A stretch of DNA of 64,000 nucleotides from a virus (IMGVR_UViG_3300045918_000470:1-64000); one strand, 5' to 3'. Shown: positions 6,455-64,000, counted from the first letter of the stretch. Notes: a model not told the origin generated them from the sequence alone. Program-made: numbers and translations.

Positions 6455-6811
6455 TTATACAATTAATGATCTAGCAGTTTTTCTCTTTTCAAGAATATCC
6501 GCATATTTTGTTATTAGATCATGAACATCCTCAGATGTACCTAAAACACTAGCTTCAGATATTTTAGTAACAACATAATCTGTTGATGCAAGATACAATG
6601 ATTGTTCTTGATTGATAGAATCTTGAACCTCTTTTGCAATCTGTTCAGGTGTAAGTGAAATATCTTCAACAACTTTTTTCTTTTTGTTATAAACCCTACC
6701 TAAATCATTAGTAGTTATAAGTTCATTATTAATCAAAATTCCTTGAAGAACTGATGGTTCGTATGAATGAACTGCGATTATTATATTTGATTTATCTATT
6801 TCTGCATACAT
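6455..6811 (-). CDS. Putative tail fibre assembly chaperone
   Basis: YLASTDYVVTK..ILEKRKTARSLI C-terminus, similar to 42724..43080; follows a fibre gene. Confidence 0.55.
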   Translation of the reverse strand: MYAEIDKSNIIIAVHSYEPSVLQGILINNELITTNDLGRVYNKKKKVVEDISLTPEQIAKEVQDSINQEQSLYLASTDYVVTKISEASVLGTSEDVHDLITKYADILEKRKTARSLIV

Positions 6812-6820
6812 ATTTTTTCC

Positions 6821-7780
6821 TTATTTTGCCCAGATTGCAAGGTAGTTTACTGTTCCAAGTGCACGTTGCTCAGTATTTCCTGACTGTATTCGAATCTTGT
6901 CACCAAACACAGTATAATAACAATATATACTATCGTTTGCATCAACACCACCAGCAAAATTCGTTTGCTTCATTGAGGGAATAAATCCTACAAGATTTCC
7001 CATAGAATATCCTGATGGTGGATAGACATCAGCATAGTTCTGACTGCTTGAAGGACCTTGTCCTACTCCTGATTGAAGTGAGTTTAATGTCAATGTACCG
7101 TATGTCACCAACCAACCCATACCTCCCGCAGGTCCTTGTGGACCTTGTGGTCCTGAAGGACCTTGTGGGCCTTGTGGACCTGAAGCACCTGAACCCGCAG
7201 ATAATCCAGAAGTAACAGCTTTAACAAATGCCGTTGTTGCGACCTTTGTGGAATTATCATTAGTTGTTGGTGTAGGTGCTAACGGACTAACACTAAACGT
7301 CTTAACGCCTGAAATTGATTGGGCAGTGCTAAGCGTACAAAAATTAGTTTGATCAGCAGTTGGTAATTGGATATCTGTTGTACCATCAAATACTACACCA
7401 TTAATTTTTCGTCCTACTTTCAATGCGTTAGCCGTACCAGCATTTCCTGATATATCTGTAACTAATCCATCACTAAATGTTTTTGCACCTTTAAATGTTT
7501 GAGCAAAATCTGTAATCGTAACACCACTAAGTGTTTGTGCAGGTAATGTAATATCAGATGTACCATCAAATGTAACACCATTAATTTTACGTGGTGTGAA
7601 TAATCGTGTTGATGTAGTTGCATTTCCAGTAAGATTACCAATAATAGGTGAACTAAATGTTTTCGTACCTGCAATGGTTTCAGTTTCTGTCTTGCTTACT
7701 TTTGTAGTATCAAGATATACGAGATTATTGTCCATCTCATCATATGTTAATGCAGATCCTTTTGTTGATCGTAAAATCAT
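6821..7780 (-). CDS. Tail fibre with collagen-like GPQ segment
   Basis: Shared N-terminal motif; RKINGVxFDGTxDI repeats; GPQGPQGPSGPQGPQGP. Confidence 0.75.
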   Translation of the reverse strand: MILRSTKGSALTYDEMDNNLVYLDTTKVSKTETETIAGTKTFSSPIIGNLTGNATTSTRLFTPRKINGVTFDGTSDITLPAQTLSGVTITDFAQTFKGAKTFSDGLVTDISGNAGTANALKVGRKINGVVFDGTTDIQLPTADQTNFCTLSTAQSISGVKTFSVSPLAPTPTTNDNSTKVATTAFVKAVTSGLSAGSGASGPQGPQGPSGPQGPQGPAGGMGWLVTYGTLTLNSLQSGVGQGPSSSQNYADVYPPSGYSMGNLVGFIPSMKQTNFAGGVDANDSIYCYYTVFGDKIRIQSGNTEQRALGTVNYLAIWAK

Positions 7781-7846
7781 ATATATCTTCCTTTCTATTT
7801 TCTATTATTTATTATCTCATTCATAAATAAAAATAAAAGGTAACCT

Positions 7847-8170
7847 ATGGAATTAAATTTACAGGAATATTTTCTCCTACAACCAGAATTATACGAGACA
7901 CGTAACGGAAAATTATTTGAGGCAATCTACAAGGATGATGAAGTGGTTATTGCATTAAATTATCCTATTGAAGAAACAACGGAAGAGAATACACGATTAT
8001 ATCCACGTGTAATCGACATTGATTATTTTAAGAAAGAATATCAACTAAAAAATTTACCACAAGATTTTAGAACAATAAATTTTAAACAGAAAAAGATGGC
8101 AATTCAATTGGTGCTCAAGCAACTCTCATTAGTATCTGATGAGGTCAAAGAAGGGTCTAATGAAGCTTAA
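7847..8170 (+). CDS. Hypothetical protein
   Basis: ORF with AAGG RBS downstream of CATAAATA. Confidence 0.6.
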   Translation: MELNLQEYFLLQPELYETRNGKLFEAIYKDDEVVIALNYPIEETTEENTRLYPRVIDIDYFKKEYQLKNLPQDFRTINFKQKKMAIQLVLKQLSLVSDEVKEGSNEA

Positions 8171-56398: not shown

Positions 56399-56433
56399 AG
56401 GTCATTCAATTTTTAATTGAGTGACCTTTTTTT
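56399..56433 (+). terminator. Intrinsic terminator after gp23
   Basis: AGGTCATTCAATT/AATTGAGTGACCT stem followed by a T-run. Confidence 0.85.
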
Positions 56434-56529
56434 ATCTCAAAAATTCTAGGAATTAATGAATGATGTGTTAACAATTATAACATAGTTTTGATTAATTTAA
56501 GTTGAAGGAAAGAAGATACAGTGTGAAAA

Positions 56530-60651: not shown

Positions 60652-61041
60652 ATGTCAGTAGACACAAAATATAACCACCTACGTAATGGTACATTATATG
60701 GTGGAGCAACAATTGGTTGGTCAATTCAAGATGACGATACATTAATTACTGCATTAGCAAAATGTAATAATGTAGATCGTTTTGTAAAATCAGAAGGTAG
60801 AGTAATCGTTGATATGAGGATTAATAACTACATCGCTAATCCTGAAAAAAATACAAGCAAGTATGTTGCAGTTGTAACATTAGATGAGGTACGTGCATTT
60901 TTGTATGAAAACTCCGAGCGTGTGTTCCCAGTATTAAATCGTGATGCTACTTTGCGAGCGATTGAGTCCGTCACGATGCGTGATTTTAATTATAATACAC
61001 ATGCATTTATTACACAAGGTGTTTTTGACGAAATTCTTTAA
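60652..61041 (+). CDS. Hypothetical early protein
   Basis: TGTTATAAT at 60613; AAGGA RBS. Confidence 0.6.
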   Translation: MSVDTKYNHLRNGTLYGGATIGWSIQDDDTLITALAKCNNVDRFVKSEGRVIVDMRINNYIANPEKNTSKYVAVVTLDEVRAFLYENSERVFPVLNRDATLRAIESVTMRDFNYNTHAFITQGVFDEIL

Positions 61042-61160
61042 TTTATAAAATCTATAAATAAAACATAAGTAGTTCTTAAGGTACATTGTGTTATAATACA
61101 CGTACATAAAAAGAATAAACGAATTTTGTATCATGAATTAGTTTAAAACATTAATTTGTT

Positions 61161-61196
61161 TTTAAGCAAAGTTATGATATAATGTTCACATAAATA
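61161..61196 (+). promoter_or_regulatory. tRNA operon 1 promoter (early TTTAAG-N8-TGATATAAT, then late-like CATAAATA)
   Basis: Motifs seen directly; another early promoter at 61075-61097. Confidence 0.7.
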
Positions 61197-61223
61197 AAAA
61201 CAATAAACACATAGGAGAATATC

Positions 61224-61361
61224 ATGTTTGGTATCGAAACAAGCGCATCATCAACAATCGCAACATATCGTGATACCAGCATTATCTCTTATACATCTAC
61301 GTCTGATATTACCGATGCTTCGGCATCATATGAGATTAACTCGGCGGAAGCCAACTCCTAA
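61224..61361 (+). CDS. Putative leader (attenuator) peptide of tRNA operon 1, 45 aa
   Basis: AGGAG RBS; MFGIETSASSTIATYRDTSIISYTSTSDITDASASYEINSAEANS; 39/45 residues are S, T, I, A, Y, D or E, the amino acids of the downstream tRNAs. Confidence 0.8.
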   Translation: MFGIETSASSTIATYRDTSIISYTSTSDITDASASYEINSAEANS

Positions 61362-61403
61362 CAGAAAGTTATTTTGACTTTCTGTGATGGAAAGTCAAAA
61401 TGA
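61361..61403 (+). promoter_or_regulatory. Mutually exclusive hairpins (putative attenuator 1)
   Basis: ACAGAAAGTTA/TGACTTTCTGT versus TTATTTTGACTTTC/GAAAGTCAAAATGA. Confidence 0.7.
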
Positions 61404-61535
61404 TTCCTCAAGCACATACACGTGCAAAATTAATCAATTTTTCTTTTCATCTTGGATAAAAGTGTCGTATTCGTTTACGGCGTTCCATATTCGTATGGTC
61501 TTTTTTCTCAAGTTTTACTCAAACAACTTGTTCGT

Positions 61536-61625
61536 GGGCGGTTAATCAACACTAACTGGATAGGTGCATCGGCTGTAACCCGGTTTCTTTATGGACTCTT
61601 GGTTCGAATCCAAGGCTGCCCACCA
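61536..61625 (+). tRNA. tRNA-Tyr(GUA)
   Basis: ATCGG-CTGTAAC-CCGGT anticodon arm; TTCGAAT loop; CCA end. Confidence 0.9.
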
Positions 61626-61633
61626 TCATATAT

Positions 61634-61708
61634 GTCACCATGGAGAAGGGGTTATCTCGTCACACTTTCACTGTGAAGTCAGGGGTTCAAATCCCCTTGG
61701 TGATACCA
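61634..61708 (+). tRNA. tRNA-Glu(UUC)
   Basis: TCACA-CTTTCAC-TGTGA; CCA end. Confidence 0.9.
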
Positions 61709-61712
61709 AATT

Positions 61713-61787
61713 GGGGATATAGTATAATTGGGAATACATAAGACTTGCAATCTTGAGTCGAGGGTTCGAATCCCTCTATCTCCACCA
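61713..61787 (+). tRNA. tRNA-Ala(UGC)
   Basis: TAAGA-CTTGCAA-TCTTG; G3-U70; CCA end. Confidence 0.92.
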
Positions 61788-61800
61788 AGAATTTAAAAAT

Positions 61801-61875
61801 GGTCTTGTAGCTCAGAGGCAGAGTGCTCCGTTGTCAGCGGAAGGGTCGGGATTTCAAAATTCCTCAGGATCGCCA
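61801..61875 (+). tRNA. tRNA-Asp(GUC)
   Basis: TCCG-TTGTCAG-CGGA; GCCA end. Confidence 0.88.
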
Positions 61876-61882
61876 AAAATAT

Positions 61883-61956
61883 AGTTCTATAGCTCAATGG
61901 CAGAGTAATCCCTTGATAAGGGATAGACGAAGGGTCAGTACCTTCTAGAACTACCA
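61883..61956 (+). tRNA. tRNA-Ile(GAU)
   Basis: ATCCC-TTGATAA-GGGAT; CCA end. Confidence 0.88.
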
Positions 61957-61961
61957 AACAT

Positions 61962-62054
61962 GGGCAATTGGCAGAAATGGAATAATTGCACTAGTCTTGA
62001 AAACTAGCAGAGCGTCAAAAACTCTTGTTGGATCGTACCCAACATTGCCCGCCA
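61962..62054 (+). tRNA. tRNA-Ser(UGA)
   Basis: CTAGT-CTTGAAA-ACTAG; long variable arm; GCCA end. Confidence 0.9.
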
Positions 62055-62059
62055 AAATA

Positions 62060-62140
62060 TGTTGTTTGTAGTATAATAGTTATTACAGGAGAGAACAGTG
62101 GACACTCCAGATACGGTGCAATTCCGTCGAGCGACAACCA
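62060..62140 (+). ncRNA. tRNA-like RNA with aberrant anticodon arm
   Basis: 9-bp acceptor, D arm, GGAG-13nt-CTCC, 4-bp T stem, ACCA end. Confidence 0.6.
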
Positions 62141-62146
62141 AAATAT

Positions 62147-62222
62147 GCCGATTTAGCTCATTCAGCAGAGCAGTAGTTTTGTAAACTACAGGTGAGGGGA
62201 GCAAAGCCTCTAATCGGCACCA
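62147..62222 (+). tRNA. tRNA-Thr(UGU)
   Basis: GTAGT-TTTGTAA-ACTAC; CCA end. Confidence 0.88.
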
Positions 62223-62301
62223 GATTGATTTTTATGAAGGGTCTATTTCTTAAATGAAAATCTTTCACAAAAGTTAATAAATTCATAGAATTTAATCTAA
62301 C

Positions 62302-62368
62302 TTTAAGCTATACTATGTTATAATGTCTGTACATAAAAAGAAAAACATAGTTTTTCAAAACATAAATA
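62302..62368 (+). promoter_or_regulatory. tRNA operon 2 promoter (early TTTAAG-N8-TGTTATAAT, then late-like CATAAATA)
   Basis: Same architecture as the operon 1 promoter. Confidence 0.7.
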
Positions 62369-62393
62369 AAACAATAAAAACAAGGAGCACACA

Positions 62394-62564
62394 ATGTGTA
62401 ACACAAGCAGCAACGTACAAAATGTTAATGTCAATGTATTAAATCGCAATAGCGTGCTCCGTGCTAGTCAACTGAATTTGGCAGGGTTAAGCTTAGGGCA
62501 AAATCAAGCAGTTCAAAGTTGGTTAAATACTTCTAATTCTCTTTTACAGAATACTTCAATCTAA
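62394..62564 (+). CDS. Putative leader (attenuator) peptide of tRNA operon 2, 56 aa
   Basis: AAGGAG RBS; MCNTSSNVQNVNVNVLNRNSVLRASQLNLAGLSLGQNQAVQSWLNTSNSLLQNTSI; rich in N, L, S, Q and V. Confidence 0.8.
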   Translation: MCNTSSNVQNVNVNVLNRNSVLRASQLNLAGLSLGQNQAVQSWLNTSNSLLQNTSI

Positions 62565-62598
62565 GTTTTCTTTAAAGGGGATTTAGTTCCCCTTTAAA
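62533..62598 (+). promoter_or_regulatory. Mutually exclusive hairpins (putative attenuator 2)
   Basis: TTTAAAGGGGA/TCCCCTTTAAA versus CTAATTCTCTTTTA/TAAAGGGGATTTAG (13 of 14 paired). Confidence 0.65.
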
Positions 62599-62672
62599 TG
62601 ATAAACAAAAACCAATCATTTAAAACACTAAATTCTCTATTGTTAATTCAATTTTTTCTTAGAATTCTCAGT

Positions 62673-62760
62673 TCTCTACAGCGCGCAAGGTGTGCGAGGC
62701 GACTGTTAATCGTTTGGCGAGAGTTAAATCCGATGCTTGGTTCGATTCCAAGGTGGAGAG
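62673..62760 (+). tRNA. tRNA-Asn(GUU), long extra arm, no encoded CCA
   Basis: GGCGA-CTGTTAA-TCGTT; TTCGATT loop; U1-A72, G73. Confidence 0.8.
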
Positions 62761-62794
62761 CTGAGAATTCAAGAAATCTATTAGATAACTTCGC

Positions 62795-62867
62795 TCAAGA
62801 GTAGGCAAACTGGTATGCCAACGGTCTTTGAAGCCGTAGATTGTAGGTTCGAACCCTGCCTCTTGAG
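62795..62867 (+). tRNA. tRNA-Gln(UUG), no encoded CCA
   Basis: ACGGT-CTTTGAA-GCCGT; TTCGAAC loop; U1-A72, G73. Confidence 0.87.
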
Positions 62868-62934
62868 CGAAGTTATCTATTTAGAATATAGGACGTATTA
62901 CTTTGAAAATGATAAATAAAGTATATATTTATCT

Positions 62935-63738
62935 AGGAACTACACTTTACATTATGATAACTTAATCAATAGAGCTAAAGAAAGAACTCTTGAAAGTTAC
63001 ACCGAATCTCATCATATAATACCACGTTGTTTAGGTGGTACAAATGATAAAGATAATTTAGTTGACTTAACAACAAGAGAACATTTTATAGCTCATTTGT
63101 TATTGTGGAAGATACATCCTAATCATTATGGTTTAGTTAAAGCTATTTCTATAATGTGTGTTCAATCTACTAATATGAACGAAAATCGTTCTTGTAATAG
63201 AATGTATGGATGGTTAAAGGAAAAATTTTCAGAAGCTCAATCTTTATCTCAATCGGGTGATGGTAATAGTCAATTCGGTACTATGTGGATTCATAATTTA
63301 GATTTAAAAGAGTCTAAGAAGATACCTAAATCTGATGAAATACCTTTAGGATGGAATAAAGGTCGTAAAATTAAATTCGATCTTGAAAATATAAAGAAAG
63401 AAATTAAAGATCAAATCAAAGAGAGAAACAAAAATAAACTTGAAGAAAAACTTCAAGAAAAGAGAAATTCTTTCCTAGATATATTTGAAGCTTATAAAGC
63501 TTATGGATACAAATATGTTATTGAAAATTTTGATTATGATAAATCTGAAGGTGTTTTATATTCAAAATTGAAAACTCTTTTTGGAGAATTTAAAAAACAA
63601 TATGAAGTGAAAATTGATAGATTTTATATTTGTCAAGAATGTAAATGTACCTTCACGAAAAAAGGGAAGTCTACAGATAATTTTAAATGTTGTAGTAGAA
63701 AATGTTCTGGTTTATTGAATAGACCGAAATTTGGATAA
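62935..63738 (+). CDS. HNH homing endonuclease; expected start codon reads AGG
   Basis: Frame open upstream of the track start 63097: (R)NYTLHYDNLINRAKER..ESHHIIPRCLGGTNDKDNLVDLTTREHFIAHLLL. Confidence 0.8.
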   Translation, partial: RNYTLHYDNLINRAKERTLESYTESHHIIPRCLGGTNDKDNLVDLTTREHFIAHLLLWKIHPNHYGLVKAISIMCVQSTNMNENRSCNRMYGWLKEKFSEAQSLSQSGDGNSQFGTMWIHNLDLKESKKIPKSDEIPLGWNKGRKIKFDLENIKKEIKDQIKERNKNKLEEKLQEKRNSFLDIFEAYKAYGYKYVIENFDYDKSEGVLYSKLKTLFGEFKKQYEVKIDRFYICQECKCTFTKKGKSTDNFKCCSRKCSGLLNRPKFG

Positions 63739-63743
63739 AATAT

Positions 63744-63820
63744 GCTCGTCTAGTGCAACGGTAGACGCATCAGACTTAAAATCTGTCCAGGTGTGGGTTC
63801 GAATCCCACGGCGAGCACCA
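63744..63820 (+). tRNA. tRNA-Leu(UAA), short variable region
   Basis: CAGA-CTTAAAA-TCTG; TTCGAAT loop; ACCA end. Confidence 0.85.
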
Positions 63821-63831
63821 AAATTATAAAT

Positions 63832-63905
63832 GCTTCCTTAGTGAAATGGTATCACACCTTCCTTCCAAGTAGGAGTCGTCGGATCGTTACCGACAGGACG
63901 CACCA
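63832..63905 (+). tRNA. tRNA-Gly(UCC)
   Basis: CCTTC-CTTCCAA-GTAGG; CCA end. Confidence 0.82.
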
Positions 63906-63907
63906 AT

Positions 63908-63982
63908 GCCAGATTAACTCAAAAGTAGAGTGTTTCCCTTACAAGGAGAAAGTAGTAGGAGCGTTACCTACATCTGGTACCA
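63908..63982 (+). tRNA. tRNA-Val(UAC)
   Basis: TTTCC-CTTACAA-GGAGA; CCA end. Confidence 0.87.
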
Positions 63983-64000
63983 AAAAATGTTCCTGTACTC

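Follow-up and report, generated by a model that had tools for sequence, protein, structure and literature searches.

Two arrays of transfer RNA (tRNA) genes in the viral DNA stretch IMGVR_UViG_3300045918_000470:1-64000 are each preceded by a short open reading frame (ORF) whose peptide consists largely of the amino acids carried by the tRNAs encoded downstream from it. The window analysed here comprises the initial 64,000 nucleotides (nt) of one viral contig, which measures 77,797 bp and has a G+C content of 32.9%. Our interpretation is that each unit is a leader read by a ribosome and thereby sensing the tRNA supply for the phage tRNA operon behind it, a reading in which our confidence is evenly balanced. 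It is carried by the anatomy of the units, by the match in composition between leader and array, by the persistence of this match under sequence turnover, and by hairpins that are conserved with compensatory base changes. The attenuator mechanism itself is weaker than was held in the first-pass annotation, which was made from the sequence of this DNA alone.

Leader peptides and tRNA blocks

As the first-pass annotation had described, the two clusters share one layout of promoter, A-rich leader region, AGGAG motif, short ORF, hairpins and tRNA genes, and all of these elements are present (Table 1). The promoters follow the form TTTAAG-N8-TGnTATAAT, which is the phage's own promoter consensus with approximately 15 copies in the 77.8-kb contig. 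Both leader regions contain ACATAAATAAAA(A)CAATAAA (61188-61207 and 62360-62378), and the spacing between AGGAG and the ATG is 6 nt in all four leaders, i.e. the two in this phage and the two in its relative L009. Like an attenuator, each unit has a leader ORF with a ribosome-binding site and no promoter between the leader and the tRNA genes, and this layout is kept in L009.

The composition counts exclude the start residue and cover 44 residues for leader 1 and 55 for leader 2. In leader 1, 39 of the 44 residues are Tyr, Glu, Ala, Asp, Ile, Ser or Thr, compared with 45% in the phage proteome (binomial probability 2e-9). The maximum in any 44-residue window of the phage proteins (17,425 windows from 54 long ORFs) is 31, and leader 1 ranks first among 429 six-frame short ORFs with a fraction of 0.89, the next being 0.62. 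Leader 2 has 35 of its 55 residues in the set Asn, Gln, Leu, Gly and Val (31% background; 6e-7; protein-window maximum 31), and it contains one Cys codon, one Trp codon and two Arg (CGY) codons. The reciprocal absences pointed out earlier (no Leu, Val or Gln in leader 1, no Asp, Glu or Tyr in leader 2, and no Lys in either) hold for this phage but are not absolute in the relatives.

Leader 1 had been said to correspond exactly to seven tRNAs, which needs a reservation for one of the genes. The tRNAs for Glu, Ala, Asp, Ile, Ser and Thr in block 1 are called by both ARAGORN and Rfam at standard settings, but tRNA-Tyr(GTA) (61540-61625) is missed there and seen at a relaxed threshold only; it is homologous to a normally called tRNA-Tyr of L009, with a compensated acceptor stem. 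For leader 2 the five corresponding tRNAs are indeed found within the window, the one for Val (63908-63982) being a tRNA by Rfam with a loop that we read as CTTACAA, giving Val(UAC). Past the window, block 2 continues with Leu(TAG), Leu(AAG), a second Asn, a candidate Ser(GCU), Trp and Arg(ACG), so that the block in total includes Asn, Gln, four Leu, Gly, Val and the second Asn, with Trp and Arg(ACG) further on. Single codons for Trp and Cys and two CGY Arg codons are present in both forms of leader 2, and matching Trp, Cys and Arg(ACG) tRNAs lie downstream. The candidate tRNA-Ser(GCU) is divergent and overlaps the end of a homing-endonuclease gene (contig 65314-65404; L025:5315-5405). Its acceptor stem is 7 bp long, the anticodon loop is proper, the variable arm is long and CCA is encoded, but the D and T arms are weak, and it was detected at the relaxed ARAGORN threshold only, with no Rfam call. 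On the contig as a whole ARAGORN finds 20 tRNA genes, and Rfam or the relaxed threshold adds more, all at 61.5-74 kb.

For comparison, DNA nearly identical to the window was present in two wetland runs, from which the contig probably derives, and in one pond run, and a diverged variant (X4/X6, one contig each) was obtained from hydrothermal-vent and sediment runs. A capsid search of IMG/VR led to four contigs of one phage type (L004, L005, L006 and L009; capsid identity 80%), which are counted as one lineage, the G001 type, because their leader regions are mutually identical. Homologues of leader 1 (P0006 and P0007, from a large protein collection) and of leader 2 (P0002-P0004) were compared as proteins.

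In the L009 lineage both leaders are found at the same places, with little sequence identity and the same make-up (34/40 and 31/46), and the sets of tRNAs in its arrays are the same as well. Leader 1' has 41 codons and its likeness to leader 1 is limited to an ISYTS motif and a D-A-x-A-S stretch; the tRNAs after it are those for Tyr, Glu, Asp, Ala, Asp, Ile, Ser, Thr, Tyr, Ile and Met. Leader 2' has 47 codons, including 15 for Asn, and is followed by tRNAs for Asn, Asn, Val, Cys, Gly, Gly, three Leu, Gln, Leu and Trp, and then Arg. Some of the differences between the lineages go in the predicted direction and track differences between the arrays. An internal Met and six Tyr in leader 1' are paralleled by a tRNA-Met and a second tRNA-Tyr in the block behind it, while leader 2 has six AGY Ser codons together with the candidate tRNA-Ser(GCU), whereas leader 2' has no AGY codons and no such tRNA downstream. 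A third, minimal codon-matched unit is present in L009 and absent from the window (L009:20124-20180). Here a degenerate promoter and AAGGAG precede an ORF of 18 codons, three of them ATA, which overlaps the 5' end of a tRNA-Ile(UAU) gene, itself followed by tRNA-Tyr.

The X4/X6 variant differs from the window at 21 positions over 61206-61454, with no gaps. Twenty of the differences are located in leader ORF 1, one is at 61419, and none falls in 61342-61418, where hairpins A and B are found; at the ORF rate of 14.5% the calculated chance of zero changes in these 77 nt is approximately 6e-6. No stop codon or indel is created in leader 1 by these substitutions, which change 13 codons, 11 of them non-synonymously, and in two cases Ser is replaced by Glu through a change of all three bases. 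Of the 11 new residues, nine belong to the seven-residue set, giving a set total of 38/44. P0006 and P0007 add the replacements S27Y, N39I and T30A, and for the X4/X6 variant and these two proteins combined 12 of 14 distinct leader 1 replacements are inside the set (hand count; binomial probability approximately 0.002 versus the 45% background). In the leader 2 homologues the Asn/Gln/Leu/Val character is kept, and the Trp and Arg codons are invariant.

As in attenuators, the leaders are enriched in residues tied to the genes that they would regulate, here the amino acids of the tRNAs, and they remain so under sequence turnover. The comparisons support the view that leader composition is under selection, and relatives keep the residue set while the peptide drifts. 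A sensing leader would be expected to show this combination of an open frame, fast residue turnover, a kept residue set and unchanging hairpins, and neither a folded functional peptide nor chance explains it easily.

Alternative hairpins and the proposed switch

The alternative hairpins reported at the stop codons are real, conserved and mutually exclusive. At leader 1 the 5' arm of hairpin B is the 3' arm of hairpin A, which makes the two incompatible. Hairpin B is identical in the X4/X6 variant, and compared with L009 both A and B show one two-sided compensatory change (CAGAAAG/CTTTCTG to CTGAAAG/CTTTCAG, and GACTTTC/GAAAGTC to GTCTTTC/GAAAGAC), pairs that were counted by hand, MAFFT/RNAalifold giving none with an alignment one base out of register. 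A second ORF of 19 codons (61400-61459) has its ATG in the 3' arm of hairpin B and is listed as a candidate only; its counterpart in L009 (L009:17880-17939) is of equal size and also starts with M-x-P-Q, and neither has a clear ribosome-binding site.

At leader 2, pairing of region 2 with region 5 gives a helix (-17.3) that encloses the 3:4 hairpin. When the region was folded with the ribosome footprint masked, a ribosome placed six codons before the stop resulted in 2:3. With the ribosome at the stop or far upstream, or with no ribosome, the outcome was 3:4 together with either 1:2 or 2:5. This position-dependent switch was reproduced in both phages, and the 1:2 and 3:4 helices are kept in both. 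As predicted by folding, leader 2 is of classical attenuator geometry (1:2 / 2:3 / 3:4).

The mechanism that we propose would start from one promoter driving a short ORF with an efficient start, spelled in the amino acids of the downstream tRNAs. The distance and speed of the ribosome through the leader would then pick one hairpin among the mutually exclusive ones. A ribosome halted within roughly the last ten codons of leader 2 would free region 2 and permit the strong 2:3 hairpin, while a ribosome at the stop codon, or none at all, would leave 3:4 with 1:2 or 2:5. The chosen fold would set the amount of mature tRNA obtained from the transcript, by an output step other than the classical hairpin with U-run, and Rho loading, RNase III-type processing or pausing could each provide it. 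That the leaders are translated, that stalling affects tRNA output, and in which direction, is what we infer from the arrangement.

Table 1 Features of the two leader-tRNA units (positions in the window).
Feature	Position	Strand	Remarks
Operon 1 upstream promoter	61074-61097	+	TCTTAAG-N8-TGTTATAAT, variant form
Start region after operon 1 upstream promoter	61102-61115	+	GTACATAAAAAGAA, conserved
Operon 1 second promoter	61161-61183	+	TTTAAG-N8-TGATATAAT
A-rich 5' leader of leader ORF 1	61188-61223	+	AGGAG at 61213-61217; conserved in relative L009
Leader ORF 1	61224-61361	+	45 codons; Ser/Thr/Ile/Ala/Tyr/Asp/Glu
Hairpin within leader ORF 1	61314-61327	+	GATGC-NNNN-GCATC; stem same in three lineages, loop varies
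Hairpin A	61362-61384	+	Starts at first base after stop; CAGAAAGT / ACTTTCTG; 8-11 bp; -11.9 kcal/mol
Hairpin B	61367-61405	+	17 bp; -18 to -19.6 kcal/mol; followed by CCTCAAGC
tRNA block 1	61540-62222	+	Tyr(GTA), Glu(TTC), Ala(TGC), Asp(GTC), Ile(GAT), Ser(TGA), tRNA-like RNA, Thr(TGT)
Operon 2 promoter	62302-62324	+	TTTAAG-N8-TGTTATAAT
Start-region motif after promoter 2	62329-62342	+	GTACATAAAAAGAA
A-rich 5' leader of leader ORF 2	62360-62393	+	AGGAG at 62383-62387
Leader ORF 2	62394-62564	+	56 codons; Asn/Leu/Gln/Val(/Ser)-rich; homologues P0002-P0004 and in L009
Region 1	62533-62546	+	Final leader 2 codons, rich in pyrimidines; pairs with region 2
Regions 2 and 3	62570-62602	+	GGGG/CCCC hairpin 2:3; -15.4 kcal/mol; begins 6 nt after stop
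3:4 A-U hairpin	62593-62637 including region 5	+	TTTAAATGAT / ATCATTTAAA; -5.9 kcal/mol
Region 5	62627-62637	+	Pairs with GGGGATTTAGT of region 2
tRNA block 2, part in window	62673-64000	+	Asn(GTT), Gln(TTG), HNH gene, Leu(TAA), Gly(TCC), Val(TAC), start of Leu(CAA)

Evidence weighing against control by the leaders

A number of observations speak against the proposed switch, and some of these concern its output. The anti-terminator invoked in the first-pass annotation presumes a terminator, and this part of the proposal is not supported: no U-run follows hairpin B, 2:3, 3:4 or 2:5, no terminator-like site is found on the + strand after either leader, and the hairpin tails (CCTCAAGC, CACTAAAT and TGTTAATT) are not those of intrinsic terminators. 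The capsid gene of the same phage ends in a canonical terminator (56399-56437) with a 13-bp stem followed by T7, which served as our internal standard for the appearance of a terminator in this phage, and therefore the host polymerase presumably uses ordinary terminators. Furthermore, hairpin B (-18) beats hairpin A (-12) in every fold computed, i.e. with no ribosome, with one at the stop, and with one placed 6 or 12 codons before it. Since B is present in all simulated ribosome states, any leader 1 switch must be kinetic.

That B folds whatever the position of the ribosome is what one would expect if the leaders were translated while the hairpins acted as processing or stability elements (RNase III-type sites for separating the leader mRNA from the pre-tRNA, or 3' stabilisers) and leader translation had no effect on tRNA output. 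The composition bias would then reflect the cheapest peptide to make from the co-transcribed tRNAs, or a function of the peptide itself. Hairpin B is indeed a perfect 17-bp duplex with no U-run, tRNA-Asn and tRNA-Gln are held inside 17-20 bp extended stems resembling double-strand-specific processing sites, and a core of leader 1 (61260-61293) is invariant among all close variants. We nevertheless regard this explanation as rather unlikely. It does not account for replacements being confined to a tRNA-defined residue set despite drift, for two or three separate units each matching its own block, or for the conserved four-region pairing layout of leader 2 tied to its last codons, and as to a function of the peptide, neither leader peptide matched any family in Pfam or PHROGs.

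A special case of ribosome-read control is a Rho-dependent attenuator of the mgtL/mgtA type, in which the folds would expose or hide a Rho loading site and stalling would pick the fold that blocks Rho. Alternative hairpins that lack U-runs are in line with it, and so are the G-poor spacers between leader and first tRNA, which are clearest after leader 2 (16% C and 5.5% G). The surplus of C over G amounts to 6 to 11 points for three of the leaders, with 13% and 5.6% after leader 2' and 20% and 14% after leader 1, but after leader 1' the excess is a small 1.5 points (16.5% versus 15%). On balance we hold Rho as the output step to be improbable.

At the level of codons the evidence is less favourable than the term "codon-matched" had implied. 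The amino-acid match stands, but the match among synonymous codons is modest: under strict wobble 50 of the 70 testable codons are cognate to the tRNAs versus 40 expected, and under relaxed wobble 60 of 70 versus 57. The phage's own rare codons are 2.5-3 fold enriched in the leaders, which fits slow-reading sensor codons and equally fits unselected codon usage. The G+C content at third codon positions in the leaders is near the genomic base composition, as for untranslated DNA. Block 2 provides no tRNA for the three Ala, three Thr and three UCN Ser codons of leader 2, and leader 1' has three Val and two Asn outside the residue set. Unlike leader 1, leader 2 is no outlier among the six-frame short ORFs (0.64 versus 0.63).

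Codon usage that looks unselected, together with the location of much of the conservation in RNA helices, might suggest that the ORFs are not translated at all and that a structured non-coding leader produces biased frames as a by-product of RNA-level constraints. This we find very improbable, given that AGGAG is placed 6 nt from the ATG in every leader, that the frames are open in three AT-rich lineages (we estimate a chance of approximately 3% for a 45-codon frame), and that 20 substitutions brought no stops or indels and new residues that stay in the set. Neither would constraints on the RNA predict a match to tRNA identity.

The distribution of the units also weighs against the proposal. 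Two further tRNA groups on the contig, for Phe (69.5 kb) and for Met/Leu/Cys (70.2 kb), have promoters but no matching leader, and a relative with 46% capsid identity (L022/L023) has a tRNA array with no clear matched leader. Two short ORFs in that relative, one of 7 codons placed with a strong hairpin ahead of tRNA-Pro and the other rich in Lys and leading into two tRNA-Lys genes, are too short to test. The same array contains a permuted transfer-messenger RNA (L022:4163-4530; Rfam RF04321, 74 bits). Finally, the comparison set holds only about three independent lineages. Among deposited phage genomes megablast returned no relatives and the blastn match was to a homing-endonuclease gene only. 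In IMG/VR, DNA patterns derived from tRNA-Tyr and from the last part of leader 2 returned only the four identical G001-type contigs. Two metagenome scans, based respectively on an alignment of leader 2 proteins and on a pattern for tRNA-Ile, gave no matches, and no related loci were found via the 129-aa gene upstream. A contig from an RNA library (X22; peat, depth 3.3) that spans 61121-61264 with eight differences and reaches approximately 23 nt further upstream may represent contaminating DNA, and it is evidence neither for transcription nor for the position of a start.

Genomic surroundings, known systems and implications

The contig belongs to a tailed phage, on which genes for the capsid, portal, terminase, head closure and tail fibres can be recognised. 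Between tRNA-Ser and tRNA-Thr of block 1 lies a tRNA-like RNA (62060-62140) with an acceptor-like stem, a T-arm and an oversized anticodon loop, assigned to His(GTG) by relaxed ARAGORN and not called by Rfam. Its counterpart in L009 (L009:20484-20570), just upstream of promoter 2', has a compensated acceptor pair (GTTGT/ACAAC versus GTTGC/GCAAC). The tRNA-Asn and tRNA-Gln genes directly after leader 2 (62655-62885) have no encoded CCA, and their acceptor stems are extended by 10-17 bp (arms GAATTCTCAG...CTGAGAATTC and ATAACTTCG...CGAAGTTAT). The Asn extension is retained in L009 with compensatory changes (L009:21010-21115), and these stems are possible sites of double-strand-specific processing. 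The series of tRNA genes is interrupted by two HNH homing-endonuclease genes (approximately 62930-63738, and contig 64566-65339), the first of which resembles mob genes of T4 type with approximately 72% DNA identity. Also within the tRNA region is a gene for an RNaseH-like protein (PF04308; contig 65612-66070, L025:5613-6068). At contig 74063-74338 (L025:14064-14336) a small secreted-looking protein is encoded that carries a CxxCH haem-binding motif and has weak, just sub-threshold Pfam matches to cytochrome c, an unusual cargo that may hint at the host.

Multivalent leader-peptide attenuators of enterobacteria include the thr leader (Thr and Ile) and the ilvGMEDA leader (Ile, Leu and Val), in addition to those of trp, his, leu and phe. 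The phage units resemble trp, thr and ilv in having a co-transcribed ORF with a Shine-Dalgarno sequence, enrichment for several relevant amino acids, and exclusive hairpins, among which ribosome position could choose in leader 2 as judged by folding. They differ in that the regulated genes are phage-encoded tRNAs and not biosynthetic enzymes, that seven to ten amino acids are scattered over the whole peptide and not collected in a run, and that there is neither a hairpin with U-run terminator nor a match to an Rfam leader family. In an Rfam scan including leader families and T-box only tRNAs were matched above threshold, a lone Thr_leader match being on the opposite strand (60844-61010) with 27.5 bits against a threshold of 55 bits. 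Because the terminator is missing and no Rfam leader or T-box match was obtained, we do not class the units as members of the leader-peptide attenuator family. Rho-dependent leader-ORF attenuators such as mgtL/mgtA and mgtP/mgtCBR of Salmonella and tnaC of Escherichia coli sense proline or tryptophan and control mRNAs. The likeness to these is that the speed of translation through a short ORF would choose among stem-loops that lack U-runs, while the phage units match several tRNAs and precede tRNA genes.

Two ORFs in the model phage T5 (NC_005859) may represent the same principle. T5.072 (7618-7893, minus strand) contains WEGWEGEIEWLYFY and is located just upstream of the genes for tRNA-Tyr, Glu, Trp and Phe, and T5.070 (6628-6756, minus strand), with 5 Cys among 42 residues, precedes tRNA-Cys. 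The T5 ORFs differ in being longer, in having a mapped promoter between T5.072 and the tRNAs, and in that WEGWEGEIEWLYFY is not near the stop codon. Papers from the 1980s on sequencing of the T5 tRNA region are said to have remarked on such ORFs.

The nearest published example of a stress-induced tRNA array is the trn operon of Anabaena sp. PCC 7120, a silent array of 26 tRNA genes that is induced under translational stress (PMC8421152) and repressed by the ribbon-helix-helix protein TrcR (PMC10272220). It is likewise an accessory tRNA array, with expression tied to trouble in translation, but it is cellular and is controlled by a DNA-binding repressor with no leader peptide. A motive for sensing tRNA shortage is provided by phage tRNAs that replace host tRNAs cut by defence nucleases, as shown for T5 tRNA-Lys against PARIS (PMC11464382) and as hypothesised by van den Berg et al. 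(PMC10264068), accounts that give no description of how the phage tRNA genes are regulated. In our literature searches on leader-peptide control of phage tRNA genes no published account was found.

As to purpose, ribosome-read leaders could serve to compensate for nuclease-depleted host tRNAs, to keep the dosage of phage tRNAs constant, or to adapt to hosts with other tRNA pools. The first-pass annotation went further and proposed that each sub-operon is induced only by stalling on codons of its own tRNAs, so that the leaders would form a multiplexed sensor of tRNA depletion and the arrays an inducible counter-defence, e.g. against anticodon nucleases. We consider this stronger version, in which the counter-defence would also be self-limiting, doubtful, and the role in inducible counter-defence is speculation.

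Arrays of tRNA genes in phages are usually regarded as constitutive cargo. If the units described here, each a compact element of approximately 350 nt, do work as ribosome-read leaders, such arrays would be gated by leaders that test their own codons, and phages would carry a built-in read-out of the tRNA pool of the host. This would bear on the question of why phages carry tRNAs, i.e. for codon compensation or for escape from tRNA-cutting defences, and it would carry leader-peptide attenuation beyond amino-acid biosynthesis and into the translation machinery.

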